This document shows, one piece after another, positions 45,084 through 60,381 of a stretch of 64,000 nucleotides of DNA. Where the stretch lies: NCBI GenBank assembly GCA_048213135.1, contig PS015010.1, positions 930,001 through 994,000 of the forward strand. The letters run 5' to 3'. Position 1 is the stretch's first letter. The number at the start of each line of letters is the position of its first letter. A program made the translations under genes and the position numbers. Origin of the DNA: Reclinomonas americana ATCC 50394 (taxonomy: Eukaryota). The notes beneath the pieces are model-generated. The model made no database searches. It was given only the letters and a program-made list of their open reading frames with translations, and was not told the origin of the DNA.

Positions 45084-46231
45084 TAAACCGGCAGCCATAC
45101 TTTCAATATACTGCCTTCGCCTTCCGATTGCACCTGTTTCATTTTGCCTTTCAGCATATCGATACGGGTCTGGATATTCTGCAGGTATAATTTTCTTTCG
45201 CCGTCATTTTCTGCCGAAACAATACCATCATCAAAAAAAGTAAGACTGATGTTTTTTCCGGCCTTCAGGTTAACGGATACCTGGCGGGCGCTGATGTGCC
45301 GGGCCATTTTAAGATACAATTCTATAATGCGGAAAAGAGAAAGTCCGGCGTTACCTTTTAGCTGTACATCTGGTGTTTCGTACAGGTATTCCACCTTCAT
45401 TTCGTTATCGACACTGTACTGGATAGCATGGGTCTCTATCAGGTCGCTGTAATTGGCATTCTCAAACGTAGTGGGGGTAATGGTTTTAGACAGCAGCTTC
45501 ATTTCATCCATCAACTCTTTGATGAGTTTTTTGCTGGTGTCGATGTATTCGCCGTTGCCGTTTTTTTTGAGTCCCGCAAATTCAAGCTGCATCTTTACAG
45601 CAGCCAGTATTTGTGCGAAATTCTCATGCAATTCTGTAGCGATAAAAATATTTTCATCTTCGCGGCGCTGGAGATTAAACTGCGCCAGTTTTTTCTCAGC
45701 GGCAACCAGGGCGGTCGTCTTCTCCACGAGGTAACGGTTCTTCAGCCGGAGATCGAGCAGTTTGCCTACCTGCCCGGCAATTATGCGCATGGCTTCCACT
45801 TGCTGCGGCGGCAGGTCTTGTTTGGAACTCCGGTCCATAGCGCATACGGTACCCAGGCGGTAACCGGTAGGGCTGATGATGGGAGCGCCTGCATAGAACT
45901 GGATCTTCAGTCCGCCAACAACATCAGGATTGTCAAAAAAACGATTGTCTTTCAACGAATCGGCCACTACCATTACATCATGTTCCAGCATCGCGTGCCC
46001 GCAGAAAGAAACGGAGCGGGAGCCTTCGCTGGACGCAATATTCTTCCTGGCTTTGAACCATTGCCTGTCCTTATCGATAAAAGTGATGGAAGCCATACTG
46101 CAGTTGCATACCTGGGCGGCAAGATGGGCCAGGTCATCAAAATCCTGTTCGGCGGCAGAATCAAGAATGTCGTACAGGCCGAGGTCGGCCAGGCGCTGTT
46201 CTTCATTGGCAGGAATTGGAGCAGGTATCAT
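45083..46231 (-). CDS. GAF-domain histidine kinase (HisKA_3, degenerate ATPase domain)
   Basis: RQWFK, SFCGHA, FYAGAP, LGTVC GAF motifs; ELHENFAQ. Confidence 0.87.
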   Translation of the reverse strand: MIPAPIPANEEQRLADLGLYDILDSAAEQDFDDLAHLAAQVCNCSMASITFIDKDRQWFKARKNIASSEGSRSVSFCGHAMLEHDVMVVADSLKDNRFFDNPDVVGGLKIQFYAGAPIISPTGYRLGTVCAMDRSSKQDLPPQQVEAMRIIAGQVGKLLDLRLKNRYLVEKTTALVAAEKKLAQFNLQRREDENIFIATELHENFAQILAAVKMQLEFAGLKKNGNGEYIDTSKKLIKELMDEMKLLSKTITPTTFENANYSDLIETHAIQYSVDNEMKVEYLYETPDVQLKGNAGLSLFRIIELYLKMARHISARQVSVNLKAGKNISLTFFDDGIVSAENDGERKLYLQNIQTRIDMLKGKMKQVQSEGEGSILKVWLPV

Positions 46232-46437
46232 ATTGTTGTAAAGGTTTACGATACGATCAATCGACATATACGGATAAACCCGTTGAATAGTTTTCCCTGG
46301 TTTTACAACCATTGCATAACAAAAATAAGACCTGAATCGCTAATCAATCGTTAATATAAGAGCTTGATAATTAACGAGTGACAGTAAAAATACGGGGTAA
46401 TTCCGCAATAATACGCTCAACCATACGTTTGAATGCC

Positions 46438-46947
46438 ATGAAAAAGATTTTTACCCTTTCTGCAATGCCCTTCCTGCTTATAGCGATACTGTTTACAGCG
46501 GCCTGCAACCAGCCCGATCCGGGGCATGATCCTGAAATTCCGGCTCCTGCTATAACGCAACCGCAACCGGAAGATAGCGTGGTTACCCGCCTGCGCCCGG
46601 CCATTACCGCCATCGAGAGCAAAAACCTGCAGATGGGTGGCTACCAGCTCAAGTTCATCAAAATCGACAGCATCCGGTATGAAAAAATATCACTGAAAAC
46701 CTATTACGACAGGCGCAAGGCGGAAATGGAAAAGAACCTGCACCTGTCGACCGATAAAGAAAAAACGCAGAAAGTGATACAATACCTGGGCGACAGGGCG
46801 GCTAAAGCCTCATCAAAAACAGAACTGTATTATGTTGATTTTTTTATGAATGCGCAGGCTGGCGATACCCGCTACCAGGAACGGCATACGAATTACCTCA
46901 ACCCCGATCTTACCGAACTGCGTATGGATTTTCGTAATATTCAATAG
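46438..46947 (+). CDS. Hypothetical lipoprotein
   Basis: MKKIF signal peptide with TAAC lipobox. Confidence 0.78.
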   Translation: MKKIFTLSAMPFLLIAILFTAACNQPDPGHDPEIPAPAITQPQPEDSVVTRLRPAITAIESKNLQMGGYQLKFIKIDSIRYEKISLKTYYDRRKAEMEKNLHLSTDKEKTQKVIQYLGDRAAKASSKTELYYVDFFMNAQAGDTRYQERHTNYLNPDLTELRMDFRNIQ

Positions 46948-46969
46948 TATGATCGTAATCATAATAGTT

Positions 46970-46994
46970 AAGCCCACCATTGGTGGGCTTTTTT
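46970..46994 (+). terminator. Intrinsic terminator
   Basis: AAGCCCACCA-T-TGGTGGGCTT plus T tract. Confidence 0.75.
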
Positions 46995-47016
46995 GTGCCT
47001 TCTCAAACTAGGATAA

Positions 47017-47280
47017 ACCTAACCGGGATAGGTCAATAACCTAAGCAGGATAGGTCACCCAACCTAACCCGGATAGGTTCAGGACCTAACTAGGATACGT
47101 TACCCTACCTAACCCCGATAGATTATGTACCTATCTAGGATACGTTACCCAACCTAACCCGGATAGGTTCAGGACCTAACTAGGATACGTTACCCTACCT
47201 AACCCGGATAGGTTAGGGGCCTAACTAGGATACGTTACCCCACCTGATGAGGATAGGTTCTTAACCTATCGGGGATAGGG
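47017..47280. repeat. Tandem array of 12 palindromic units (ACCTAAC..GGATAGGT) with alternating 22/23-bp period
   Basis: Unit starts 47017, 47039, 47062, 47084, 47107, 47129, 47152, 47174, 47197, 47219, 47242, 47264. Confidence 0.9.
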
Positions 47281-47409
47281 GATAACAGCCGCAGCGGCGT
47301 CATCGCTTTGAGGTGGAGGCAAGAACAGCGGAGGAATTGTAAGTTGTACAGGGGCTTCAACAACTTTTACAATGCCTCCATTAACTTTTTTCACAGAGCG
47401 CACAGCGGC

Positions 47410-47660
47410 ACGAAGTACACAGAGACGCTCCGTGCCTCTTTGTGAAAACCCTCCGTGCCCTCTGTGAAAAATCCTCCGCTCCCTGCCACGTCCCCAACGG
47501 TTTAAATTCCACATATTTTACCGGGAAAACCAGAGGTACGAAGCACACAGAGACGCTCCGTGCATCTTTGTGAAAATCCTCCGTGCCCTCTGTGAAAAAT
47601 CCTCCGCTCCCTGCCACGTCCCCAACTGTTTAAATTACCCGTATTTTACCGGGAAAACCA
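47410..47660 (+). repeat. Tandem duplication with 128-bp period containing CTCCGTG..CTCTGTG REP-like motifs
   Basis: 47410-47532 aligns with 47538-47660. Confidence 0.85.
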
Positions 47661-47696
47661 CTAACTTCCAATCACTGAAAAAACTACATTTGCCTT

Positions 47697-48101
47697 ATGA
47701 CAACAAAGACAAACACCATACACCAGGGCCGCAATGTGAAACGATTCCGTGAAATGCTGGGCATAAAGCAAGACGCCCTTGCCGCCGACCTGGGAGATGA
47801 CTGGAATCAACAGAAGATTTCACTGCTGGAGCAAAAGGAAACCATCGACAACGGGCTGCTGCAACAACTGTCAGCGGCGCTGAAGATACCCGTGGAAGCG
47901 ATTGAGAATTTTGATGAGGAGCAGGCGGTGAATGTGATTGCTAATACCTTCTCCAGTCATGATAGTTCAACATTAAACGCAGTTAATCCCTACTGTACAT
48001 TCAATCCACTTGACAAAATGATCGAGCTGTATGAGCGTATGATTCAGCAGCAAAAGGAAATGATTGAGAAACTGGAGAGGTTGCTGGAAAAGGGAAAATG
48101 A
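47697..48101 (+). CDS. XRE family HTH transcriptional regulator
   Basis: HQGRNVKRFREMLGIKQDALA...QQKISLLEQKE; TACATTTG at 47685-47692 suggests a near-leaderless transcript. Confidence 0.92.
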   Translation: MTTKTNTIHQGRNVKRFREMLGIKQDALAADLGDDWNQQKISLLEQKETIDNGLLQQLSAALKIPVEAIENFDEEQAVNVIANTFSSHDSSTLNAVNPYCTFNPLDKMIELYERMIQQQKEMIEKLERLLEKGK

Positions 48102-48148
48102 CCCTTTTGATGTTTTGATAAAAACACAGTTTTTGCATTCTCACTGAA

Positions 48149-48256
48149 GTGTATTGTACTAACAACAATACAAAAAGTATAATGCCAAAAGACTGGTTAC
48201 CAGTATTCTTCTTTTTTATGTCTTTATTTTTAGTTGCATATATTTATGAGTTAGCT
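48149..48256 (+). other. attI-like array leader, copy 1
   Basis: ~100-bp sequence repeated at 55191-55291; identity ends at the G|TT of the first cassette core site. Confidence 0.65.
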
Positions 48257-48273
48257 GCCATTAAACAGACACA

Positions 48274-49476
48274 ATGATTAAACAAGTATTTATAACATAT
48301 TCGTGGGACACAGACGAACACAAAGAATGGGTTAGAAGTATTGCAGACTTTCTTATTTCGAGAGGCATTATGGTGTATCTAGACCAATATGACATCAAGC
48401 CTGGAGAAAGCTTTACTCATTTTATGGAAAGTTCAATTACAAAATCAGACAAGGTTCTCGTTGTATTGACGCCAAGTTACAAAGATAAATCGTTAGAGAG
48501 AAAAGGTGGTGTAGGATATGAACAGCAAATTATATCGGGCGAAATAATGTCAGGAATGGATAGAAAAAAAATTATTCCGCTGATAAGAAAAGGAAAATAT
48601 GAAGAAGGTATTGATTGTGCCTTACCTCCGCACTTTAAGGGAATTTCGACACTGGATTTCAGAACTTCGGAAAATGAACAAAACTCTTTAGATGAATTAC
48701 TAAGAGCTATATATGAAGAGCCAAAATTTGTAAAACCTACTTTAGGAAATAAACCAGACTTTGGTAAGCAAGTGTCTGACAAGTCGTTTGTAATAGAACT
48801 TGATGAGGATTTTAATTTCCTTCAATCAGAAATTTTCTTGACTGATTTATTCTTACAAATTTCGGACTTGAGAAAGGCAAATAGTAAGTACAATTTAAAT
48901 TTCAACATTCGTGGTATCTCTGATGAACTGGCAGAATATACACAATTAGTTTCCTTACAAAATCTTTCAGACAAAGACATTAAAAGGAAGTTAGAACTTA
49001 GAGCCTATTTGAATGAAAGATACTTTCTTCCAAACGGGACTATTTATGAATATCTTCAGTATTCAATCAACTCAATTATTGATTTTAGCTTTAATAAGTA
49101 CAACTACGTTTTTAATTATCAAGATTTATTCGTTGCTCTCACTAAATGTTTAAAGTTATTTTCAGATAAAAATAGCTGGCGAAGAGGCACCACAAAATTT
49201 GATATATTCCACAACAAGATTAAATGGGGATTTAGCATCTGGATTTCCGAGAGCGAAGTACAAAGTCTTCTTGCTAAAATGTCAACCAACGACAAAATGT
49301 TTCTTACAGCCATAGCTGGACTTGATACTTATGACCTTTCCCATTCTACTCTAATTGAAGAGGTAATTCCAAAACAATCCTATCAATTTACAATCGATTA
49401 TTTTTTGAAGAGAATAAATGAAGAAATAAAAGAAGAATGCTTTAGGACAGGTAATTGGAAAATAGGATTAGGATAA
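48274..49476 (+). CDS. TIR/SEFIR domain protein (cassette 1)
   Basis: VFITYSWD..EHKEWV, LDQYD..PG, TPSY, GGVGYE; unknown C-terminal domain. Confidence 0.88.
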   Translation: MIKQVFITYSWDTDEHKEWVRSIADFLISRGIMVYLDQYDIKPGESFTHFMESSITKSDKVLVVLTPSYKDKSLERKGGVGYEQQIISGEIMSGMDRKKIIPLIRKGKYEEGIDCALPPHFKGISTLDFRTSENEQNSLDELLRAIYEEPKFVKPTLGNKPDFGKQVSDKSFVIELDEDFNFLQSEIFLTDLFLQISDLRKANSKYNLNFNIRGISDELAEYTQLVSLQNLSDKDIKRKLELRAYLNERYFLPNGTIYEYLQYSINSIIDFSFNKYNYVFNYQDLFVALTKCLKLFSDKNSWRRGTTKFDIFHNKIKWGFSIWISESEVQSLLAKMSTNDKMFLTAIAGLDTYDLSHSTLIEEVIPKQSYQFTIDYFLKRINEEIKEECFRTGNWKIGLG

Positions 49477-49484
49477 ACAACGGC

Positions 49485-49683
49485 AGCTAACATTGGTATT
49501 GCCAATAGCGGGGCTTGACATTGAAGCAATCAGCAGCAGTAATTCTACTGTACTGCGGTTCGGGGCTCGACGAACAAAGCCTAGCTTTGGTTCTTAATAT
49601 TTAACTTTATCAAAAAGCCAAGCAGCGGTTCCGGGCGGACGAATATAAAATTTCCCACCATCGGCAATACCTGCTCGTTGTGT
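49485..49683 (+). repeat. attC-like site 1
   Basis: AGCTAAC ... GGTATTGCC/GGCAATACC inner IR ... GTTGTGT. Confidence 0.8.
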
Positions 49684-49707
49684 GCAATGCACAGACCACT
49701 ATAAAGG

Positions 49708-50391
49708 ATGACACATATCGATTTTTTTGAAGCTTATAGAAATGGCCAAAGGCACTTTTCAAATTTGGATTTTGAATATTTAAGTGGTTTTGCTAACAAT
49801 GACTTTTCGGATGTAATTTTTAAGAACTGCCTTCTTTATCTTGATTTTAGAAATTGCAACCTGACAAACAGCCATTTTATTGGATGTAATATAAAAGAGA
49901 TTGATCTAAGAAAGGCAAATTTGACAAATGCATTAATGACCCAATGTTTAGTTGAAAGTGCGATGTTTAAAGGAGCGATAGTCAAAGGTTTCAAGTTTGT
50001 CGACAACCACTATTATGGCGCAACTTTAAATCAAGAAGATTTCGATAAAGACCTGATAAACTCAGACGCTTTCATACTTAAGAAAGAAGTATCTAAAGTC
50101 GACTTCGTTAGTACACTTTCTCCAAAAATGACCGATGTGACAGAAATTGCTGAACCCAAGGTCGACATTTGGCCATTTGTTAATCAGTTGGTGTATGAGA
50201 GAATTGTTGACGATTATGTCGCAATTAACCATTTGGTTGAAAAGGTCTACAGGAATCAATTAAATTGGTGCGATCATATTCTATTGCCAACCAGTACTGA
50301 AAATACATTTGTCGTAATCCTTGTCGACGTTGAGAATAAGAAGATAATGGGATATTATCAGCTTAATTTAAATGCCGAATACGACTTATAA
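49708..50391 (+). CDS. Pentapeptide-repeat protein fused to an unknown C-terminal domain (cassette 2)
   Basis: DFRNCNLTNS, DLRKANLTNA, AMFKGA repeats in the N-terminal half. Confidence 0.8.
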   Translation: MTHIDFFEAYRNGQRHFSNLDFEYLSGFANNDFSDVIFKNCLLYLDFRNCNLTNSHFIGCNIKEIDLRKANLTNALMTQCLVESAMFKGAIVKGFKFVDNHYYGATLNQEDFDKDLINSDAFILKKEVSKVDFVSTLSPKMTDVTEIAEPKVDIWPFVNQLVYERIVDDYVAINHLVEKVYRNQLNWCDHILLPTSTENTFVVILVDVENKKIMGYYQLNLNAEYDL

Positions 50392-50404
50392 TCGGAAGCA
50401 CAGT

Positions 50405-50601
50405 ACACAACATGGGGTTTTCTGCTATGCTGGCTGAAGAATATATGCTGATCGTCCCATTCGCTTATCAGCTATAGTTCGGGCTGAACGGAGAAACCCC
50501 AGCAACAGAATATAACATCAACTGCATTAAATTTACTCAGCAACAGTTCGGGCTGACGAATCACAGAATATCAGCACAGCAGAAAGCCCTGACCGTTGTA
50601 C
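50405..50601 (+). repeat. attC-like site 2
   Basis: ACACAAC ... GGGTTTTCTGCTATGCTG / CAGCACAGCAGAAAGCCC ... GTTGTAC. Confidence 0.8.
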
Positions 50602-50634
50602 GCCATTCTATCGAAACATTATTAAATACAAACC

Positions 50635-51114
50635 TTGACAAACGTAAAACTTAAATTTTCGCAGTTCTCAGAAAGAGCAAATTCAGAAATAGGTTTTATT
50701 GCAGAAGACAACACTGATGTTGAAGTAACAACCCTTCAAATAAAAAATTGGGCGACCTTGCAACTCTACTATTGGTACCAGTACAAAGAATTACTTGGTG
50801 TAAAGACATTTTATAAAAGCAAGCCTATAAAAATTGAAGCTTTCGTAGACTCAAAAATTGTTGGCACATTTATGCAAGTGAGAGTAACAAAAGACACTGT
50901 AATTAGAAAAGATGATATCACATTCCCATTTCTAGAAAATTTATATATGCTTACTACCTATCTTGAAGCACCAATAAAGACAAAGAAAATAATTCACAAG
51001 AAAAAAGAAACTTTAAACCACAATATTGAAAAGTATTTAAATATAATCGAATATTCTGATCGGCAATTTTCAAAATTTGGCTCTCCCGTAATATTTACTG
51101 GTTGGACAAATTGA
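50635..51114 (+). CDS. Hypothetical protein (cassette 3)
   Basis: ORF fills the cassette between GTTGTACGCC and GGCGTACAAC; TTG start. Confidence 0.7.
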   Translation: MTNVKLKFSQFSERANSEIGFIAEDNTDVEVTTLQIKNWATLQLYYWYQYKELLGVKTFYKSKPIKIEAFVDSKIVGTFMQVRVTKDTVIRKDDITFPFLENLYMLTTYLEAPIKTKKIIHKKKETLNHNIEKYLNIIEYSDRQFSKFGSPVIFTGWTN

Positions 51115-51122
51115 GAAACGGC

Positions 51123-51317
51123 GTACAACATGGGGTTTTGTGCAAGTGGGGCTGGACAATCAAACTTCAGCTAAGTGCAAAGCCAGGCTGTGGTTCCGGC
51201 AGGACAAACTTTATTGAGCTTTTGTAATTAACTTCATCATTCGTAATTTTAATCAGCGGCGGTTGCGGACGGACACAACAACATCTCCCCACCTGCACAA
51301 AGCCCTGTTCGTTGGGC
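51123..51317 (+). repeat. attC-like site 3
   Basis: GTACAAC ... GGGTTTTGTGCAAGTGGGG / CCCCACCTGCACAAAGCCC ... GTTGGGC. Confidence 0.8.
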
Positions 51318-51326
51318 GTCATTACC

Positions 51327-52022
51327 ATGATAAATTCGAAAAACTATATAGTAATTATAATTCCCTATTTAACTCTATGTTGTGGAGTATATCAATTAAC
51401 TTATTGGACGCTTTTTAATCTAAACGCATTTAATTTTATATCATTTCAAGACATTATAAAGTCTTCAATTTTACCATTAATTTCATCATTTCTTACCTCA
51501 GCAATTGGGTTTTATATAGCATCTACACTATTTTCAAAAAAAAATGATCCAGAAAATCTAAAAACAAATAAGTCTCCTCAAAAAAAAGGCAATATTTTGA
51601 AGGAGATTATCGCTTTCCTCTTAATCATTATACTACTTGTTGTAGTTCTCATTTTTATTCCAGGAAAAAATTATAAGGGTTATGCGATGATACTTGGAAT
51701 GATATTTTATGTTTTTATAGATATTAACTTCATCTTCTCCAAAGATTTCAATCCAAAAATTGATAAAAGGTTTTTGATGATGATAATGATATACTTCCCA
51801 TTCATTGGCATCGCAAAAGCGTTAGAAGACGGAGATAAAATAATGGAAAATAAAGAGTACCAATATACCACTATCCCGAAAAATAATTCACAACTTGTTA
51901 CTTCATCCTTCGATACAATAAAACTCATAGGGATTACAGATGAAAAGTTCATTTTTACAAATTTGAAAAATGACAAAATATTTTTTTTAAAATCAGACAC
52001 AATGATACTATATCGAAAGTGA
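51327..52022 (+). CDS. Multi-TM hypothetical membrane protein (cassette 4)
   Basis: About 5 hydrophobic helices; very AT-rich. Confidence 0.78.
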   Translation: MINSKNYIVIIIPYLTLCCGVYQLTYWTLFNLNAFNFISFQDIIKSSILPLISSFLTSAIGFYIASTLFSKKNDPENLKTNKSPQKKGNILKEIIAFLLIIILLVVVLIFIPGKNYKGYAMILGMIFYVFIDINFIFSKDFNPKIDKRFLMMIMIYFPFIGIAKALEDGDKIMENKEYQYTTIPKNNSQLVTSSFDTIKLIGITDEKFIFTNLKNDKIFFLKSDTMILYRK

Positions 52023-52026
52023 CCTC

Positions 52027-52225
52027 GCCAAACATAAGGTTTGGCGCAATTGGGGCTTGACGGAAAAACTTTCAACATTTGTTCGCTATTCAACCTCAGC
52101 TATAGGGTTGGACCGTTAACGGATCCGTCGGCTGCCTTCCGTTGTCAGAATAATTTCGTTTCTTTAATATCATCCAGGCCGGGCATACGGAATACTAATT
52201 CCCATCTTGCATAAAATCCTGGACG
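52027..52225 (+). repeat. attC-like site 4 (degenerate, right core site missing)
   Basis: GCCAAAC start; family motifs present; ends ...ATCCTGGACG with no GTT. Confidence 0.6.
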
Positions 52226-52239
52226 ACCGATTACAAACA

Positions 52240-52773
52240 ATGACCTGCAACAATTTTGACATAAAGATATTAGACCTTCATTGGATTATGGACGTTGACG
52301 ACCCAACAGACCTTTGTGCACACGGGCACGTTTTTGTAAAAATCGGAGACGGAATTGTGGCAGACAAAGACAGTTTAGACGTAACAGTAAGTTCAACTGC
52401 TCTGTATTTAATGCGGACAATAAAGGGCAATTACAAAAAAGACGACTATGCAAGTCAACTGCTGCCTTGTTGCGGACACTTTTTTATGGCTGATGAAGAA
52501 AGTGACTACGTTTCTATTATGGGTTGCCCAAGCGGAATTGACTGGACAATTATTCACACAGGCGATGGCAAAATCAAACACATAACAGACAGCGGACAAG
52601 AAGCAACGGTTGACAAAAATGAATATATAAAGTTGGTTTTGAACTTTGCAGACCAGGTTGAGGATTTTTATAAAACGAGTTTGCCAAAGACAATACCAAC
52701 GGGCAACTTCGAAAAAAAAGGTTACTTGACATTTTGGAAAGAATGGCGACTCTTACGAGACGAATGGAAATAA
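52240..52773 (+). CDS. Hypothetical Cys/His-rich protein (cassette 5)
   Basis: DLCAHG, LLPCCGH, GCPSGIDW. Confidence 0.78.
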   Translation: MTCNNFDIKILDLHWIMDVDDPTDLCAHGHVFVKIGDGIVADKDSLDVTVSSTALYLMRTIKGNYKKDDYASQLLPCCGHFFMADEESDYVSIMGCPSGIDWTIIHTGDGKIKHITDSGQEATVDKNEYIKLVLNFADQVEDFYKTSLPKTIPTGNFEKKGYLTFWKEWRLLRDEWK

Positions 52774-52779
52774 AACAAC

Positions 52780-52973
52780 ACATAATATTGGGGTTTATAC
52801 AAGTTGGTCATCATCGGCAAACATCAGCAAATTGCAAATCCAGGCTGTGGTTTGGGCCGGATAAACAACTTTCAACTTTAGTTCTTAAATTCAGTATTAT
52901 ATTTTCAATAAGCAGCTGTTATGGGCAGACGGAACGGTAATTCCCAACCTGCATAAAGCCCTGCTCGTTGCCT
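52780..52973 (+). repeat. attC-like site 5
   Basis: ACATAAT (AAC>AAT) ... GGGTTTATACAAGTTGG / CCAACCTGCATAAAGCCC ... GTTGCCT; closely similar to site 6. Confidence 0.75.
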
Positions 52974-53007
52974 GCAAGCGTATTGTGACACAACTTGAAA
53001 TTTTAAA

Positions 53008-53673
53008 ATGGACTATAAGTTAGAAAAGCAAATTTGGACGGACGCAGACTTTGGTCAAATGGGTTGGCACGACTGCAACATTTATAAAATCCGTTTGACA
53101 GACGATTTAGAACTTGACATTGATTATATTCTTCAATGGAACAAGCCAGACTTAGAAGGGTTGCCATTTACATTTTGGGTTGCACCAGCGACACTTGTTT
53201 TTAAATCAGTTCAAAACTTGACTTTTGACTTTGATATCGGTTTTGAAAATGCTTTTGAAATTGAAGACATTGAAAAGGAAGGCGAAAATCGTTGGACAAT
53301 TATTACAAGACAAGGCGACATTCAACTTACTTCAAGAGGTTACGAGCAATACATAAGACAAGAACCTTTTTTTGAGTTTGGACAAACAATTTCATACAAT
53401 GAACGCAACGGTTATTCTCTTGACAGAACGACCAACCAAGAAAACCGAAATAGAAGCCGTGAAGACATTGTGCAGCAGCGTCAGAAAGATTTAGAAGATT
53501 ACGAAAATGTCAAAAAGCGACATCTTAAAAAACAAGAATTGGAAGAGCTTTCGAAAGCCAGAAAAAATAACGAGCTTGACACAAAACAATATCTCTTAAA
53601 GAAAAAGGAAATTAACGACCAGCTCTTTTCTTACGACTTTTTTCTAAAAGGAACAAAGTTTGAGAGTTGGTAA
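53008..53673 (+). CDS. Hypothetical protein (cassette 6)
   Basis: DFGQMGWHD, LDIDYILQW, FWVAPATLVF. Confidence 0.78.
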   Translation: MDYKLEKQIWTDADFGQMGWHDCNIYKIRLTDDLELDIDYILQWNKPDLEGLPFTFWVAPATLVFKSVQNLTFDFDIGFENAFEIEDIEKEGENRWTIITRQGDIQLTSRGYEQYIRQEPFFEFGQTISYNERNGYSLDRTTNQENRNRSREDIVQQRQKDLEDYENVKKRHLKKQELEELSKARKNNELDTKQYLLKKKEINDQLFSYDFFLKGTKFESW

Positions 53674-53701
53674 CAATTTTCGGTGGACAAGGAATACCTG
53701 C

Positions 53702-53895
53702 TGCCAACATTGGGTTTTATGCAAGTTGACCATGACCAGCAAACATCAATTAATTACAAAGCCAAGCTGTGGTTCGGGCTGGACAAACAACTTTCAACTT
53801 TAGTTCTTAAATTCAACTTTATATTTTAAATCAGCAGCGGTTGTAGGCAGACGGAATACTAATTCCCAGTCTGCATAAGGCCCTGTTCGTTACCT
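53702..53895 (+). repeat. attC-like site 6
   Basis: TGCCAAC ... GGGTTTTATGCA / TGCATAAGGCCC ... GTTACCT. Confidence 0.8.
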
Positions 53896-53921
53896 GCAAT
53901 ATTAAAACGAACCTTTTCGAA

Positions 53922-54464
53922 ATGAAATTCTTTGAAACAGCATTTCTTTGTTATGAGCTGACCCACGCAAAAAATATTGACTTCATCAAAGAAACCATTG
54001 ATCATTTGGAAAGTTTGGAAGAAGAGGAGATATATTCCTGGGAAATGATCCCTGGCTCGGAAAAGTATTTCAGATCTAGACCTATTGGTGGAGAAAGGCC
54101 ATTTCCAACATCAAGCTTAGCAATAGAAACCGGTAGCTTTATTAAAGAGTTATCTGGATTCAATTTCAGGCAAAACGATCAGGCAGAATTTATAACGGAT
54201 GTCGTTTTTAAAGACTATAGAAATATTATTAAAAACGCGGCATGTTTGAGTGATCTTAGTTATGCCATTTTTCTATACTCTAGAAACAAAAGGATTGAAT
54301 ATTTATGGTTTGACAAAGTTGAGGATGCTACAGACGAAAGTAAACACAATACTTCTAAAATGCTATATCATCTTGGAAATTCCTTTGAAATGGTGCTGGT
54401 TGATTGGTATGAAAAAGAGATAATAAATCTGAACTCGCTCGAAGAAATTGAGAAGTTTTTATAA
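53922..54464 (+). CDS. Hypothetical protein (cassette 7)
   Basis: ORF bounded by GTTACCTGCA / TGCAGGTAAC; LVDWY near the C-terminus. Confidence 0.75.
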   Translation: MKFFETAFLCYELTHAKNIDFIKETIDHLESLEEEEIYSWEMIPGSEKYFRSRPIGGERPFPTSSLAIETGSFIKELSGFNFRQNDQAEFITDVVFKDYRNIIKNAACLSDLSYAIFLYSRNKRIEYLWFDKVEDATDESKHNTSKMLYHLGNSFEMVLVDWYEKEIINLNSLEEIEKFL

Positions 54465-54472
54465 AATACTGC

Positions 54473-54666
54473 AGGTAACAATGCATTGGTGCAATGGTAG
54501 TTTGACGTCAATTCCTCATCTTCGTCTATCTATTTGGCTTCAGTCACCGGGTTGACTTTTTCTAACCACTTTTTCTTAGCTTCATGCTCAGCAACTATTC
54601 GGCATTAAGCCAATCGGTTGACGGAATTCTGTTACCACCACTGACGCCAATGCCTCGACGTTAGCG
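54473..54666 (+). repeat. attC-like site 7
   Basis: AGGTAAC ... GCATTGG / CCAATGC ... GTTAGCG. Confidence 0.75.
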
Positions 54667-54673
54667 GTCATTG

Positions 54674-55021
54674 CAGGACGTCCTTGCCGCCGACTTGGGC
54701 TGATCCCGATAGCTATCGGGAGAATCAACAAAAAAATCACTGCTGGAGCAAAAGGAAACAATTGACGATGGGGTGCTGTAGCAACTGTCTGCGGCGCAGA
54801 AGATACCCGTGGAAGCGATTGAGAATTTTGATGAGGAGCAGGCTGTGAATATTATTTCCAATACAGTTAACAATAATGACAGCACTACCGGAAATTCTTT
54901 ATTCAGCTACCAACCCACATTCAACCCTATAGACAAAATGATGGAACTGTATGAAAGGATGATCCAGCAGCAAAAGGAAATGATTGAGAAACTGGAGAGG
55001 TTGCTGGAAAAGGGGAAATAA
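54674..55021 (+). pseudogene. 5'-truncated XRE-HTH paralogue of 47697..48101
   Basis: Aligns to XRE copy 1 from QDALAADLG onward; palindrome insertion at 54704-54721; TAG at 54779-54781; same C-terminus ERMIQQQKEMIEKLERLLEKGK. Confidence 0.85.
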
Positions 55022-55190
55022 CCCTTTTTTGATATTGAGATAAAATATGAAGCCGCTGGATGTGGCTTTTTTTATTAATTATGCTATATTTATAATATAT
55101 AGCGTTACCCTAAATTCCGATACCCATTGTTTAATCTTCACAGAAAGTATATTTTTTGCAAAGAGGTAGAGTTTTATTATTCACGCTGAG

Positions 55191-55297
55191 GTGTATTGTA
55201 CTAACAACAATACAAAAAGTATAATGCCAAAAGACTGATTATCAGTGTTCTTCTTTTTATATTTTTATTTTTAGTTGCAAATGTTTATGAGTTGGCG
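55191..55297 (+). other. attI-like array leader, copy 2
   Basis: Near-identical to 48149-48250; ends at G|TTGGCGG. Confidence 0.65.
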
Positions 55298-55336
55298 GTA
55301 GGTTTATGAGACCCCCTATAAATAAAACCTTAGTCT

Positions 55337-55552
55337 ATGACAAAGACAATAACAATTGAAACAACTTCAGGAAAGCAATATTTTGAGATTGAAGAATATT
55401 CGAGTAAATTTTACGTCTACAAACTCGACTACAGCGGTTTTTGGAGTACTAAGAAAAGAAATAATATTGGCGAAGCCAAAAATCTTGACGACGCAATTAC
55501 AATAGCAAAATCCTCTGTCTCTGGCAGTATAAACAAAATTGACCTGAAATAA
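55337..55552 (+). CDS. Small hypothetical protein (cassette 8, gene 1)
   Basis: 71-aa ORF immediately after the core site. Confidence 0.7.
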   Translation: MTKTITIETTSGKQYFEIEEYSSKFYVYKLDYSGFWSTKKRNNIGEAKNLDDAITIAKSSVSGSINKIDLK

Positions 55553-55562
55553 AATTTCTAAC

Positions 55563-56758
55563 ATGGCTGAACAACCAATAACTAACTCACCGGAAGACAA
55601 TTTTTCGGAAGAAGTAAAACAAACGTATCACCAATACGGAGCTAAATGTGCAATTGATACAAGGTCTAACCCGGATGTATTACCCACTTCGCTTGCTAGT
55701 GTTTACAATAAATTCCTTTTTGACACTAAGCTCGACCCTGAAGCAATACAAGCAAGAATTTCTAAACTTGAAACCGAGGTTTTACAAAAGAAAAGCCAGA
55801 AAGACAGGACAATTGGCGAAATCAATACTCTTCAGAAAGTAAAAGAAACCAAAGAGAATAAAATAGAAGAATTGAGAATTGCGAAGATTAATTTGAAAGA
55901 AACTGACACTTCATTTACAGATTGGGTGCCTTTTGTTATTGGAACTTTTATTTTAATTATTCTTACTCTCTTTCTTTATGCCTTTTACTGCTCATTAATT
56001 TATTCGCTTTTCTTTGGAACTAGTGGAGATACTGTTAGTTTTTTAATCCAAATGTATTTTCCGATACTCGAAATAAGGGTGGGCTTGCGTCATGGGTTAT
56101 TTTCTGCTCGCCAATTATCGTTCTAAGTATCGGATATTTAATTCATACATTTTTATCGCAAAAGAAATATTTCAATCTAGTTTTACTTTTACTCCTAATG
56201 TTTATAATTGATAGTCTTATAAGCTATCAAATCGCTAGTGCAATACATGACAACAAATTCTCAGCAGGCTTAACTGATGAAAAATGGAAAGTTGGCATGG
56301 CGATTAATGACCCCCAATTTTGGACAATTATTTTATTGGGCTATGTAATGTATGTAGTTTGGGGAATAATTCTTCACAACGTTCTAAGAGAATACTCGAA
56401 GCTTCAGCCAGATAAAATTCTTCAATTAAAAGTCGAGAATATTGATAAGCATATCAATGAAAATGAAGCTAGTTTATTAGAAATAAATAATAAAATTAAT
56501 GAGCTTACGGCATTAATTGGGACACTCACGAATGAAATAGATTTAAAAGAAAATGACATCATTGGCTATCGAAATGGAATTATACCAATAAAGGTTTCTT
56601 CTTTAAGAGATTGTGTTAATCAATTCATGAATGGGTGGTATGCCCAAACTAATTTGCTAATTGCACAATCACAATCAAAGCAAATCGCAGATAAGGCTTC
56701 AAAAATTCAAAGTGAATGGCTTGAATTAAAAATTGAAAATTTAGATAGCGATCACTAA
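55563..56758 (+). pseudogene. Coiled-coil / multi-TM protein split by a 1-bp frameshift (cassette 8, gene 2)
   Basis: Adding one T to the run at 56039-56044 joins 55563.. to the open frame FNPNVFSD...GYLIH...MFIIDSL ending at 56758; may be a sequencing indel. Confidence 0.75.
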
Positions 56759-56773
56759 CCCAGTTTAATTATT

Positions 56774-57855
56774 ATGGAACAAGCCAAGCCACGCAAAAAG
56801 AACTATAAACCTATAATAGCCCTTATCATTTTCCTTGTAATATTTGGTCTATTTGCATTTTTCATAACAAGTCCTTCGACTTTAAGTAAAGCCAGAACGA
56901 GTATAGAAAGCTGTTATAATATTGAAGATGTAAAACAATGTTGGTATAAGTATAAGGAGGATTTGCACCAAAATCATGAATTTGTAGCATTAGTCAAACA
57001 AAAGCTTGCTTCTTTTGGCTTATCTGAAGCCGAAATAGAAGATTGTAAAAAATGGCTGCCAAAGTCAGACGAGAACTTAAATATTATTGTTATCCCCGAC
57101 CTTTCTAGGCGAATTATAGACACTTTAAATAACCCTGAACAAATTACTAACGATACTATTCTTTTATCACAAATTTGGAAATCATTTGAAAAGGCAGTTA
57201 AGTTAAAGAAAAACTCAAAGGACAGATTAATAGTGGATATAACAGATAATGACCAGGCACAGGGAAAATTTAGAACTATTGCTAACAAGTTAATTTTTGA
57301 CCTTTCTAGCCATAAGAACCAAAGCAATAGACTATACTTTGAAAAGATTGGTTCACAATTCAGCAACAACATCTCACAATTATATGCATTAGGAAAAGAA
57401 CAGCCCTTAGGTGCCGATTACTGGTATTATTTCAATCGAACAATAAGTAAACATATAAAACAATCAAACATTTCTGAGGACTATAGAAATATCATAATAT
57501 TAATAACAGATGGATATTTAGAAGCAGAAGACCAATTATATACTGGCAATTCTCAATTGCTTAAATCAGTATGTGCAGAAAATAAAAAGGAAAATCTTTA
57601 GATGAAATATTTAAGTCCAGAAATTTACAAATCCCACCTTGCACCATAAATTTATCTAATTCTGAGATTCTTGTTATCGAAGTTAATGAAAGGCGAAGTG
57701 GTTTAAAGTGCGACTATGATATTTTAAAAAAATATTGGACAAATTGGTTTGTCTCGATGAAAATCAAGAACGCTGATAAAAACTGCTTTATTGCAAGGGA
57801 AAATGCAATTGATTTGACTAAAGGAGCGATTGACGCAATAATTAATAAAAAATAA
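56774..57855 (+). pseudogene. Membrane-anchored vWA-like protein with a 1-bp frameshift (cassette 8, gene 3)
   Basis: IIVIPDLSRRI and ILITDGY motifs; adding one A near 57584-57588 extends the frame to TAA 57853-57855, overlapping the next ATG; may be a sequencing indel. Confidence 0.7.
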
Positions 57856-58340
57856 TGAGTATTTCATTTTGTAGATTCCTTACTGTCCTTTTTTTTGTCA
57901 TTGGTTGCACTTCAAACGAAGTCAAATTACCCAATATATTTTCAGGAAAAGTAGTTGCTGTTAAAGATGGAGACACCATTGAAGCACTATATAATGGTGA
58001 GGCTCAAACAATACGACTTGCTAACATAGATTGTCCCGAAAGGTCTCAACCCTTTGGAAAGGCTGCAAAGAAATTTGTATCAGACATGTGCTTTGGAAAA
58101 ATTGTAACTATTTCAAGCGACGGAAAAAGAGATAGATATAATAGGCTCATTGCAACAGTAATTATTGCTGACAATATAATTTTGAATAAAGAGCTATTGA
58201 AAGAAGGATTGGCGTGGCACTATAAAAAGTATTCTGACAAAAGCGACTATGCCGAACTCGAAACACAGGCGAGAAAAATACAAAAAGGGCTATGGGCTGA
58301 CAGTAATACAATCGCTCCGTGGGACTGGCGTAAGCAATAA
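57855..58340 (+). CDS. Thermonuclease (SNase-like) lipoprotein (cassette 8, gene 4)
   Basis: DGDT, IRLANIDCPE, DRYNR, GLAW, GLW..PWDWR. Confidence 0.93.
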   Translation: MSISFCRFLTVLFFVIGCTSNEVKLPNIFSGKVVAVKDGDTIEALYNGEAQTIRLANIDCPERSQPFGKAAKKFVSDMCFGKIVTISSDGKRDRYNRLIATVIIADNIILNKELLKEGLAWHYKKYSDKSDYAELETQARKIQKGLWADSNTIAPWDWRKQ

Positions 58341-58359
58341 AGACACGAAGAAAACCTAC

Positions 58360-58560
58360 CGCCAACATGGGTATTGCCAAAATGCAGGCTGACGGAAGCC
58401 GTGTTTCAACTGTTGTAATTCTGTTGGGCTGCATATCCAGCTTGGCTGTATCTATTTAGCTATGTGCATATCATCATCTTTTTTATCTTTACTCAGCAGC
58501 GGTCAGCCGGGGCAGACCGAATTCTATTTCCTACACTTTGGCAATACCTGTCCGTTGTAG
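58360..58560 (+). repeat. attC-like site 8
   Basis: CGCCAAC ... GGTATTGCCAAA / TTTGGCAATACC ... GTTGTAG. Confidence 0.8.
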
Positions 58561-58570
58561 GCAATCTTAA

Positions 58571-59163
58571 ATGAACCTCACAAAAGAAAATTTAAAATTA
58601 TTCATACCAGCCCTAGTTGAACTAGTGGACGGACAGGATTTCCCGTGGGACAAAATCGACAAATTATTTTCCGACAAAATAGCAGACCGAATTTCAAAAA
58701 GTAATGGTGAGGTTATTATAGTAGAGGCATCTATTTACGACATGATAGTAGCTGCAAAAAAGAAATATTCAAGTGCCGTCGGGCTATTACACTTTTTAAA
58801 TAAACTGTTTGAAGAGTTGACCGACATTCTTGATTCAAATGAAAAGTCATTAATCAAAAGTAACGTCAAGCAAATGTTGACATCGCTTGATAGCAAATAC
58901 TTAAATTTTTTAGGCGAAATAGCAACGCTAAATAATCTCATTAAATCAAAAGTAAAAAGGCGGGGCTGGACAGTGATTTTTCTTTTTATCTAATTCCTGT
59001 AATTTGGGGTGGCTGGAAAGATATAAAAATCTATAGTGACTTCTTTAAATTAAACCAATTGGATTTACCTAATGTTATTGAGCCTGTTTACTATTTAACT
59101 TATACTGACAATGCAGGTTATTACGGACATTATTTTAAAAGAATAAGTAACCTATTCAAGTGA
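58571..59163 (+). pseudogene. Disrupted hypothetical gene (cassette 9)
   Basis: 5' ORF shifts near 58950 into a second open frame (...FYLIPVIWGGW...ISNLFK*) ending at TGA 59161-59163. Confidence 0.6.
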
Positions 59164-59176
59164 CAGACAAGCCTGC

Positions 59177-59259
59177 CACCAATATTGGTATTGCCAATTG
59201 TGGGGCTTAACATTGAAGCAAGCAGCAGTAATTCTGCTGTACTGAGGTTCGGGGCTTAA
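59177..59259 (+). repeat. Truncated attC-like site 9 (left half only)
   Basis: Near-identical to the first ~80 bp of site 1, then host sequence resumes. Confidence 0.7.
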
Positions 59260-59328
59260 CCACTAACCCTTCCTGAATTCCCCGTAATTCATAATTCGTA
59301 ATTCGTAATTATGAATTATCTTCCCTTA

Positions 59329-60381
59329 ATGAAGCATTTTAAGTTCTATTCCAAACAGGATATCCTTTCACTGACCAAAGTCCGCCGTTTTGAAACGAAG
59401 CTGGGGGAGCGGGTGCAGTACCTGAAACCCGGGGGCGAATGGCCGGAAGTTTTGCAACAATCCAGCGCACGCTATGTATTGCTGGGCATACCCGAAGATT
59501 TTGGCGTAAGGGCCAATTATGGCATCGGTGGAACAGATACGGCCTGGCTTTCTTTCCTGGCTGCTTTCCTCAACATACAGAGCAATGATTTTATGAGTGG
59601 GGAGAACATCCTCATCCCCGGGCATTTTGATTTTGGCGATCTTAAATTCCTCATCGAGAACAACGCCTATAATCCAACCGAAAAAATAGATGCTTACCGG
59701 CATGCCATCAAACTTATTGATGAAGAAGTGGAACAAATGATCAAGCTGATCAGCTCCGCCGGAAAGATACCCATCGTAATTGGTGGCGGGCATAATAACG
59801 CGTATCCCATCATCAAAGGCGCAGCTAAAGGTCTGCATAAGAACGACCTGGTACCGCTGGCGCAGATCAATGCCATTAACCTTGATGCCCATGCCGATTA
59901 CAGCGCGGCGGAAGGAAGGCACAGCGGCAACGGCTTCCGTTATGCGGAAGAGGACGGCTACCTGGGTAAGTATTGTATTGTGGGACTGCATGAGAGTTAT
60001 GTATCGCAGAATGTGCTGATGGACCTGCATAACAATCCCTTCCTCGATTACATCAGTTATGAAGAAATATTCCTGCACGAAAGAAAGAACTTCATACAGG
60101 CGGTAGCGCATGCTACGGGTTTTACGGAAGACAGTTACACCGGTATTGAACTCGACCTCGACTGTGTGGAAAATGTACTGAGCAGCGCATCCACACCCAG
60201 CGGTATTTCCGCATTGCAGGCAAGGCAATACATAACATTTACGGCGCAGGATTGTAAAGTGGCTTACCTGCACATCAGCGAAGGCGCTACGCAACTGGTG
60301 GATGGAAGAAAAGATCCCGCTACAGGTAAACTGATCAGTTACCTGGTGAGTGATTTCATTAAGGCGAATGCGCCCGATTAA
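59329..60381 (+). CDS. hutG: Formimidoylglutamase (arginase family)
   Basis: GIPEDFGV, GGGHNNAY, NLDAHAD, HSGNGF, ELDLD. Confidence 0.88.
   Translation: MKHFKFYSKQDILSLTKVRRFETKLGERVQYLKPGGEWPEVLQQSSARYVLLGIPEDFGVRANYGIGGTDTAWLSFLAAFLNIQSNDFMSGENILIPGHFDFGDLKFLIENNAYNPTEKIDAYRHAIKLIDEEVEQMIKLISSAGKIPIVIGGGHNNAYPIIKGAAKGLHKNDLVPLAQINAINLDAHADYSAAEGRHSGNGFRYAEEDGYLGKYCIVGLHESYVSQNVLMDLHNNPFLDYISYEEIFLHERKNFIQAVAHATGFTEDSYTGIELDLDCVENVLSSASTPSGISALQARQYITFTAQDCKVAYLHISEGATQLVDGRKDPATGKLISYLVSDFIKANAPD

Follow-up and report, generated by a model that had tools for sequence, protein, structure and literature searches.

The DNA considered here is a stretch of 64,000 nucleotides (nt) deposited under Reclinomonas americana ATCC 50394 (contig PS015010.1 of assembly GCA_048213135.1, positions 930,001 to 994,000 of the forward strand), and "the window" refers throughout to this whole 64-kb stretch, with coordinates counted from its first letter. 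Between a helix-turn-helix (HTH) gene at 47697-48101 and an arginase-family gene at 59311-60381 it contains ~11 kb of AT-rich DNA, which is occupied by two tandem arrays, 48250-54673 and 55291-59267, of what are very probably integron-like gene cassettes. The first array has seven cassettes, the second a 3.3-kb cassette with five genes and one further cassette, the final site of which is halved against the chromosomal flank. The GC content is 31-41% in the arrays as opposed to 45-52% in the flanks, and the open reading frames (ORFs) of the arrays all run in one orientation and are assigned to separate families or to none (TIR/SEFIR, pentapeptide repeat, staphylococcal nuclease and several unknowns). 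The original prediction, made from the letters alone, was of a single integron-like array of co-oriented, AT-rich and mutually unrelated genes; that description of the genes and the cassettes themselves hold true, the single array does not, there being two that each start at an attI-like docking site. In the following list S1 to S9 are the attC-like sites, R'' stands for the bases before the AAC of a site and R' for its GTT and the bases that follow.

47697..48101, + strand: XRE-type HTH gene, 134 amino acids (aa), directly 5' of docking site 1 (Pfam HTH_3 E 2.3e-4, under the curated cut-off)
48150..48252, + strand: attI-like docking site 1, putative crossover GTT at 48250-48252, ~90% identical to docking site 2
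48251..49677, + strand: cassette 1, bSEFIR/TIR defence gene 48274-49476 (PADLOC bSEFIR E 2.9e-65; Pfam TIR_2 4.4e-20) and S1 49482-49686
49678..50595, + strand: cassette 2, pentapeptide-repeat protein gene 49708-50391 (Pfam Pentapeptide_4 7e-12) and S2 50402-50604 (nhmmer 1.6e-38)
50596..51311, + strand: cassette 3, ORF 50635-51114 with no Pfam family and S3 51120-51320 (nhmmer 7.4e-48)
51312..52229, + strand: cassette 4, membrane-like ORF 51312-52022 and S4 52024-52234 (nhmmer 7.1e-35), R' decayed to GATTAC without GTT
52230..52967, + strand: cassette 5, ORF 52240-52773 and S5 52777-52976 (nhmmer 4.9e-46), R'' decayed, AAT replacing AAC
52968..53889, + strand: cassette 6, ORF 53008-53673 and S6 53699-53898 (nhmmer 7.8e-50)
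53890..54660, + strand: cassette 7, ORF 53922-54464 and S7 54470-54669 (nhmmer 9.5e-26)
54660..54673, + strand: end of array 1, GTTAGCGGTCATTG; AGCGGTCA(T/G) likewise follows the GTT or GTA of attI in two related loci (L136, L137)
54674..55021, + strand: second HTH gene copy, partial (residues 25-134, 72% identical by tblastn; 85% repeats)
55190..55293, + strand: attI-like docking site 2, putative crossover GTT at 55291-55293
55292..58554, + strand: cassette 8, 3.3 kb, five same-direction ORFs and S8 58357-58563, with 15 nt of R'/R'' complementarity
55337-55552, 55563-56126, 56198-56758, 56774-57601 and 57855-58340, + strand: the ORFs of cassette 8, the last a staphylococcal nuclease (SNase; Pfam 2.7e-26, PADLOC PDLC01096 3.4e-18)
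58555..59267, + strand: cassette 9, ORF 58571-58993 and half-site S9 59173-59267, the end of array 2, adjoining the arginase-family gene
59311-60381: arginase-family gene, chromosomal (Pfam Arginase)

The element that recurs between the genes is a site of ~200 nt. A profile built from the aligned intergenic elements finds nine of these in the window, all on the + strand, with matches starting at 49480 (S1), 50401 (S2), 51118 (S3), 52023 (S4), 52776 (S5), 53698 (S6), 54468 (S7), 58356 (S8) and 59173 (S9), and there is no tenth, as no further profile match with E < 0.1 occurs anywhere in the window. The last, S9, is a truncated half-site for which nhmmer covers profile positions 2-97 only, and its identity with the first half of S1 amounts to 90-94%. 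An Rfam scan of 46000-60000 at E<=1, a check suggested with the original prediction, gave no family for the sites and returned only two chance-level mir-1296 rows, both on a 45-nt tandem repeat (47016-47259) and scoring 28.9 bits where the gathering score is 100.

Stem statistics were taken from an alignment (A4) of 65 full-length sites, drawn from the window and from 14 related loci. The three positions of the terminal AAC/GTT triplets pair in 59, 63 and 64 of the 65 sites, and inside the triplets there is a small asymmetric loop, of about 2 nt on the 5' side and 5 nt on the 3' side, followed by a stem of 19 bp in which 83.8% of cells are paired and 14 of the 19 pairs have changed on both sides in a compensatory manner. 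Over the whole structure 85.4% of cells are paired; shuffled alignments reach 63.5% (0/500 as high), and sliding the partner lowers the figure to 30-43%. The covariation score of 0.517 falls to 0.153 after shuffling (again 0/500 as high) and to 0.04-0.11 on displacement of the partner by 1-3 columns. One stem position carries a fixed A.C mismatch in 61/65 sites, and no bulged base could be assigned in the folded sites beyond this mismatch and the asymmetric loop. The covarying stem corresponds to the paired inner arms that had been predicted.

The imperfect inverted repeats, R''-L''...L'-R' bounded by AAC...GTT, have the architecture of an attC site. Their size is another matter. Classical attC sites measure ~57-141 bp overall, and these exceed that length, the span from AAC to GTT having a median of 189 nt (range 154-198, n=66), so the long attC-like sites of the original prediction are borne out. 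The centre, of ~150 nt, is composed of conserved sequence blocks, amongst them three direct GGCTGAC-like motifs, two of which are preceded by CAGC..GTTCC; the up to three GGGC.GGAC-like motifs noticed originally appear in the alignment as three conserved GGC.GAC-like blocks. RNAalifold found no consensus structure in the ~160-column centre of the 65 sites, and in a 12-site alignment only the outer stem and two short helices. In known attC sites, according to the part of Cury et al. (2016) relied on here, the terminal structure is variable and of 20-100 nt. Some sites in one related locus (L150 6745-16106) are shorter, at ~140 nt, with overlapping profile matches to positions 5-76 and 83-206, as though one central module were absent.

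A second line of evidence comes from the ends of the cassettes, for which every R' was scored against every R'' in a matrix. Contiguous runs of complementarity between the two ends of the same cassette are 10 nt for attI 1 with S1, 7 nt for S1 with S2 (9/12 matching), 10 nt for S2 with S3, 10 nt for S6 with S7 and 15 nt for attI 2 with S8, compared with 6 nt at most for any wrong pairing in the window. These are the five end pairs singled out in the original prediction, and all were found in their places. Own-end complementarity is therefore kept in 5/9 window cassettes. When the window and 21 related loci are taken together (22 sequences), own-cassette complementarity reaches 7 nt or more, typically exactly 10, in 42/61 consecutive site pairs, compared with 24/443 non-consecutive pairs. 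Such complementarity is the classical signature of former circles opened between the G and the TT of GTT, and since the bases after GTT match the R'' of their own cassette the pairing points, indirectly, to a crossover at that position.

Each array is preceded by a leader. A block made up of the 3' part of the HTH gene and ~125 nt of leader occurs twice in the window, at 47820-48255 and 54737-55296, the copies being 85-90% identical and both terminating in the GTT that opens a first cassette (48250 and 55291). Docking site 1 has a first box, ATTGTACTAAC-AACAATAC-AAAAAGTATAA, and a second box, CATATATTTATGA-GTT. In related loci, which carry a tyrosine recombinase gene at the head of an array, the sequence from the recombinase stop codon to the first GTT is conserved, with boxes ATTGTACTAAC.ACAATACAAAA.GTATAA and CATATATTTAYG.GTT, and both conserved boxes stand before both arrays of the window; 25 columns are invariant when three HTH-linked leaders are aligned with five recombinase-linked ones. 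By sequence and by position the leaders of the window are the predicted attI sites of the recombinase-linked system. The 14 positions at the end of array 1, GTTAGCGGTCATTG, may be the displaced right half of an empty attI, as an integron-type insertion at attI would leave. Leader 2 has a 159-nt insertion relative to leader 1 (window 55019-55179), and metagenome contigs of two runs (X1 and X2) are without this insertion and resemble leader 1 there.

In the window attI 1 comes directly after the stop codon of the HTH gene, and because the boxes are common to the window leaders and to the sequence that follows the recombinase gene, the HTH gene holds the place of the recombinase gene, as it also does in a locus from a Hanamia genome (L069). 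In L069 the 13 nt ahead of box 1 resemble the final codons of a recombinase gene, a weak hint that a deletion may have occurred. A blastn search of the window leader against 80 HTH loci gave a match in L069 only, and the homology becomes clear only by way of the recombinase loci. In genomes of Bacteroidota the HTH protein has relatives in 487 of 510 matched stretches, and long sites occur in only 3 of the 80 HTH loci kept (L006, Ferruginibacter; L069, Hanamia; L065, Ginsengibacter), all from metagenome-assembled genomes (MAGs). The 134-aa protein is 59-78% identical across Chitinophagia, Flavobacteriia (Chryseobacterium, Flavobacterium, Elizabethkingia) and Cytophagia-type genomes. The sequence 3' of its gene varies by locus, and in 10 loci a conserved set of downstream genes starts at varying distances, which suggests that the HTH gene marks a hotspot of variable genes.

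No integrase is encoded locally, in agreement with the original prediction: tblastn with 51 recombinase homologues reached no better than E 0.022 in the window, and no gene for a single-stranded-DNA-binding protein (SSB) was found there. A cluster of attC sites lacking an integron integrase has been termed a CALIN in the sections of Cury et al. (2016) drawn on here. With nine sites in 64 kb the window has the at least two sites without a nearby integrase that define a CALIN, by analogy only, the sites not being classical attC.

The recombinase was found in relatives of the presumed host. Amongst 301 genomes of the Chitinophagaceae, the family to which Ferruginibacter belongs, the best sub-threshold matches to the integron integrase model TIGR02249 led to a Hanamia MAG (L100) in which an HTH homologue on the minus strand is followed by an SSB gene, a gene for a 410-aa tyrosine recombinase, an attI and a first cassette, where GTTGGTAGCC pairs with GGCTACCAAC ~570 nt further on. 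At least five long sites come after this recombinase gene, all in the same orientation. Homologues at E<=1e-60 are present in 117/301 genomes, mostly one per genome and often <2 kb from the end of a contig. A site lies just 3' of the recombinase gene and on the same strand in 13 of the 30 best loci, taken with 1.5-kb flanks, and when up to 15 kb downstream was available co-oriented sites are found in 15/20 loci, with up to ~19 in L147 and 11 in L135. For four of the remaining five the contig stops 159-2177 nt past the gene; in the fifth, L142, two sites lie on the opposite strand, upstream of the gene. In none of the 19 loci other than L142 is there a site in the 5 kb upstream. The genome of L069 (G002) has a full 411-aa copy of the recombinase elsewhere, and since the L069 array is itself without one, recombinase-less arrays coexist with the recombinase in a single genome, as CALINs do with integrons. 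A cognate tyrosine recombinase, supposed in the original prediction, thus exists as a family of ~400-aa proteins tied to the sites in relatives. The SSB gene of L100 (14795-15142, between the HTH gene and the recombinase gene) encodes 115 aa, and no homologue of it was found in 20 other recombinase loci by tblastn with that query at E<=1e-8.

This enzyme is a Xer/IntI-like tyrosine recombinase. The catalytic R, K (of KGKKDR), HxxR, H and Y are invariant in 36 homologues, and in their source annotations these are called XerD or tyrosine-type recombinase/integrase. Against NCBIfam the scores in bits, each followed by its cut-off, are XerA 204/220, integron integrase TIGR02249 174/265, XerC 168/335 and XerD 163/330; the enzyme therefore lies under the equivalog cut-offs for XerC and XerD, and the match to TIGR02249 is in two stretches, with model positions 178-239 skipped. 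An alignment with a true IntI from the same bacterial family (397 bits) leaves 41 gap positions in the enzyme, and nearly all of these fall over the IntI insertion, so that the additional domain around patch III is lacking. The AlphaFold model has a mean pLDDT of 86.9, and the nearest solved relatives are XerA (4a8e; sequence E 1.3e-53, Foldseek 9.9e-15) and IntI4 (2a3v). In a tree of 68 recombinases the array-linked enzymes (36 sequences, SH-aLRT 94), IntI (20 sequences, 99) and XerC/XerD (94) form three separate groups; one XerC entry of this tree is a wrongly chosen ORF that sits on a very long branch, and its IntI sequences are from one sub-clade. In each of 5/5 genomes there is in addition a separate XerD (338-355 bits, above the cut-off), and in 4/5 also an XerC-like paralogue.

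The published accounts drawn on here treat the IntI-specific additional domain as a defining and necessary trait of integron integrases, and IntegronFinder, as far as its description was used, demands the domain for an intI call. What the array-linked enzyme has is an N-terminal extension of ~125 residues, consisting of a folded domain of ~85 residues and a linker. Residues 9-89 are confidently modelled as a beta-beta-alpha-beta-beta-alpha-beta-alpha domain, with a conserved W-S-x-T-x-K-C-W-Y-x-P. With the N-terminal 130 residues of four recombinases Pfam gave only sub-threshold rows for DUF5710 (E 0.0035-0.086), and Foldseek with the N-terminal model gave nothing at E<=0.001. Structure comparison matched the model to the N-terminal domains of XPB (2fz4, Z 6.3, rmsd 1.6 Å over 56 aligned residues; 5tnu, Z 5.8, rmsd 2.0 Å, 56 residues) and of T4 UvsW (1rif, Z 5.8, rmsd 2.2 Å, 63 residues), and to the HARP domain of SMARCAL1 (4o66, Z 3.1, rmsd 2.1 Å, 48 residues). 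Domains of the XPB/UvsW/HARP type bind damaged or branched DNA, and binding of branched DNA by the N-terminal domain would suit a folded site.

Searched for on its own, the N-terminal domain was found in 68/401 genomes drawn from across the phylum, in most cases within ORFs of 340-440 aa. In eight genomes of other Bacteroidota families (L172-L179) a domain-bearing recombinase is followed by chains of self-complementary GTT...AAC units, of which 8/13 gaps are 117-122 nt; the chain detector is noisy, giving chains of 1-2 on a reversed-sequence control compared with the 2-5 observed. It looks as though the 200-nt site is an elaboration of the Chitinophagaceae and the sites of other families are shorter.

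The content of the arrays turns over. Identical gene order in distant relatives, which the original prediction had named amongst the observations that would speak against cassettes, was not seen: none of 100 cassette ORFs is common to different genomes, and there is one duplicate inside one array. The lack of a recombinase associated with the repeat family, named there as well, is contradicted by the enzyme tightly linked to the sites in relatives. Six metagenome runs from two studies carry at most 9% of the sampled words of the window and none contains the whole stretch; contigs from four of the six were compared with the window, those parts without a contig being uninformative. One contig holds cassette 1 alone (48248-49502, with 88 differences), others match from 52966 on (cassette 6) behind another upstream site, with the joint running from 51314 to 52966, and others leave the window sequence after 48253, 49679, 52970 or 53900 to run on into unrelated sequence, that is, other cassettes after the same GTT. 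A further contig joins the two HTH copies (47947 to 54935), a form without array 1. The contigs support, short of proof, a mosaicism that is precise to the cassette.

Taken together, the window very probably contains tandem arrays of an integron-like gene-capture system of the Chitinophagaceae (Bacteroidota) from which the recombinase gene has been lost, an analogue of a CALIN. The window's own arrays are recombinase-less and partly decayed; the parent system is integron-like and new, and as a distinct system, the form in which it had originally been predicted, it stands on cassette-specific R'/R'', the AAC...GTT boundaries, the covarying stem and a cognate enzyme that is not canonical IntI. 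It departs from the definition of an integron in two respects, the IntI insertion and the size of the site, and is therefore not filed as a classical integron. Each unit is a promoter-less gene (once a gene set) with its ~200-nt attC-like site, and each array starts at an attI; in the proposed mechanism cassettes would be cut out as circles and inserted between the G and the TT of attI or of another site. The acting enzyme would be the ~400-aa Xer/IntI-like tyrosine recombinase encoded just upstream of attI in relatives, presumably with a folded single strand of the site as its substrate, as is the case in integrons, and a recombinase encoded elsewhere in the genome could act on the arrays of the window. 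In place of the IntI insertion that reads extrahelical bases, the N-terminal domain, perhaps together with the central repeats, would supply recognition of the site.

A number of points weigh against this interpretation. Neither a tyrosine recombinase nor a remnant of one is present in the window, and circles, strand choice, catalysis and activity on the window's arrays are proposed from sequence. Cassettes 4, 5, 6 and 9 (S3-S4, S4-S5, S5-S6 and S8-S9) have decayed to 0-4 nt of own-end complementarity, which fits a partly fossil array. The top and bottom strands of the window sites fold about equally well, with no consistent strand preference, and among the stem cells that are not Watson-Crick A.C (142) outnumbers G.T (64), which favours the bottom strand weakly. 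The N-terminal domain has fold matches of intermediate strength (best Z 6.3), at a level that may reflect no more than a common arrangement, and the order of the array-linked, IntI and XerC/XerD groups is not settled by the 68-sequence tree. Finally, the metagenome data are assembled contigs of 90-99% likeness in repeat-rich DNA, and their joins may be chimeric.

It would seem very unlikely that these are ordinary integron cassettes, a classical CALIN with long attC sites moved by a canonical IntI elsewhere or in a donor genome. The R''-L''...L'-R' architecture with AAC/GTT is that of attC, and canonical IntI above the TIGR02249 cut-off does exist in the family, in 2/301 genomes (L098 and L096), against which the Xer-like recombinase is found in 117/301 and directly upstream of arrays with a conserved attI. 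In L096 (16072-16797, G255:C24) the intI is degraded, with 1 stop, and two long sites lie ~10 kb away, pointing toward it; large ordinary genes stand between these sites and the intI, and the sites are on its wrong side. In L098 (G090:C202) the canonical intI is on a 2.9-kb contig with no long site, and there is no IntI above the cut-off in any of five genomes examined, three of which carry long sites.

We consider it highly improbable that the cassettes are mobile by means of other machinery, either the host XerC/XerD or an IS91-type rolling-circle element with its own tyrosine recombinase. According to the portion consulted of one report (PMC3442271), Xer enzymes can recombine folded single-stranded phage DNA, with which they exchange one pair of strands. 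The genome of L069 (G002) contains a multi-copy unit that combines a 296-aa tyrosine recombinase with an IS91-like transposase; at least three of its copies adjoin the R'' end of a site at GTTC and are 97-99% identical from the junction on (L069 11584-13718; L081, L086, L091). This unit looks like an insertion sequence that targets the long attC-like sites: it is known from one genome only, its recombinase is 32% identical to the array-linked enzyme, and it sits inside arrays like an invader. As for the host enzymes, neither the separate XerD (5/5 genomes) nor the XerC-like paralogue (4/5) is array-linked. Barely credible is the last alternative, that the 200-nt elements are non-mobile intergenic repeats (REP/MITE-like, or a structured terminator or 3' untranslated region) and the genes no cassettes at all, since although the elements are intergenic, past stop codons, partly palindromic and abundant, and 4/9 units are without end complementarity, a terminator or MITE leaves unexplained the unit-specific complementarity to a box ~1-3 kb downstream, the uniform direction of the sites after a single recombinase gene and a single attI, and the exchange of adjacent genes precisely at GTT in metagenome contigs; no Rfam family matches the elements.

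If the arrays belong to an integron-like gene-capture system of their own, its relation to known systems can be set out as follows. As in integrons and CALINs there are arrays of same-direction, promoter-less, unrelated and AT-rich cassettes, each ending in an imperfect inverted repeat with AAC...GTT and starting with bases complementary to its own R''; in relatives a single attI lies beside the recombinase gene, recombinase-less arrays occur beside complete elements (G002), and defence genes are carried as cargo, such as the bSEFIR cassette of the window. The Vibrio cholerae superintegron is an example of a sedentary chromosomal integron. In contrast to integrons, the linked recombinase has no IntI-specific domain and has the ~125-residue N-terminal extension, its gene is co-oriented with the array, and the sites are ~200 nt, their ~150-nt centre consisting of conserved direct repeats where integrons have a variable hairpin tip. 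The same direction of recombinase gene and cassettes, with attI just past the end of the gene, is shared with the inverted group of integrons. As far as is known, members of that group, such as the integron of Treponema denticola, have a canonical IntI with the additional domain. In common with the Xer enzymes the recombinase has XerA (4a8e, 5hxy) as the best match to its core and a simple CB+CAT architecture without the IntI insertion; it differs in lying under all Xer cut-offs, in grouping apart from the XerC/XerD of the same genomes, in its extra N-terminal domain and in sitting at the head of cassette arrays instead of acting at dif.

The host phylum is also one with almost no integrons in IntegronFinder surveys, as far as the parts of these used here report. 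In the IntegronFinder 2.0 account, to the extent it was drawn on, Bacteroidetes earlier had only In0 elements and now have a complete integron in Salinibacter, and the relevant passage of a review names Bacteroidota amongst integron-bearing phyla without detail. No description of this cassette system was found in the full-text literature, a search that did not extend to the supplementary tables of surveys, where Bacteroidota CALINs may be listed.

With regard to cargo, cassette 1, which adjoins attI, encodes a near full-length bSEFIR protein according to PADLOC, and for the nuclease of cassette 8 there is a match to a candidate defence model; these two are the only matches amongst ten cassette proteins run through PADLOC. 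Defence systems have been found in integron cassettes, according to the part consulted of a recent report (10.1101/2024.07.02.601686). It is possible, and we suggest it tentatively as something short of an even chance, that the Bacteroidota have a second integron lineage without the IntI domain, in which an XPB-DRD/UvsW/HARP-type domain and three arm-like GGCTGAC repeats recognise and orient single-stranded sites and in which the arrays act as banks of anti-phage genes. Integron recombination is held, in the sources drawn on in part here, to depend on the IntI domain reading extrahelical bases, and detection tools demand that domain. A widespread cassette system that is domain-less would, if confirmed, mean that the logic of the integron can run on a different recognition device; there would be a large unsurveyed pool of cassettes, including the bSEFIR defence gene, in Bacteroidota of soil and freshwater, and a second, independent system in which to study how folded single-stranded sites are recognised.

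Two minor observations concern sequences around the arrays. When the cassette proteins of the window were compared with 151 related loci only that of cassette 6 had a relative, 65.6% identical; this homologue, in Niabella hirudinis (L020 12908-13576), lies 2.5 kb 3' of an HTH gene in GC-richer DNA, outside any array and with no long site nearby. Tandem repeats are present 5' of the HTH gene of the window, at 47016-47259 (a 45-nt unit, x 5.4) and at 47403-47660 (a 128-nt unit, x 2), and short repeats in tandem are likewise found on the flanks of the SSB and recombinase genes of L100 and after the recombinase gene of another locus, L146.

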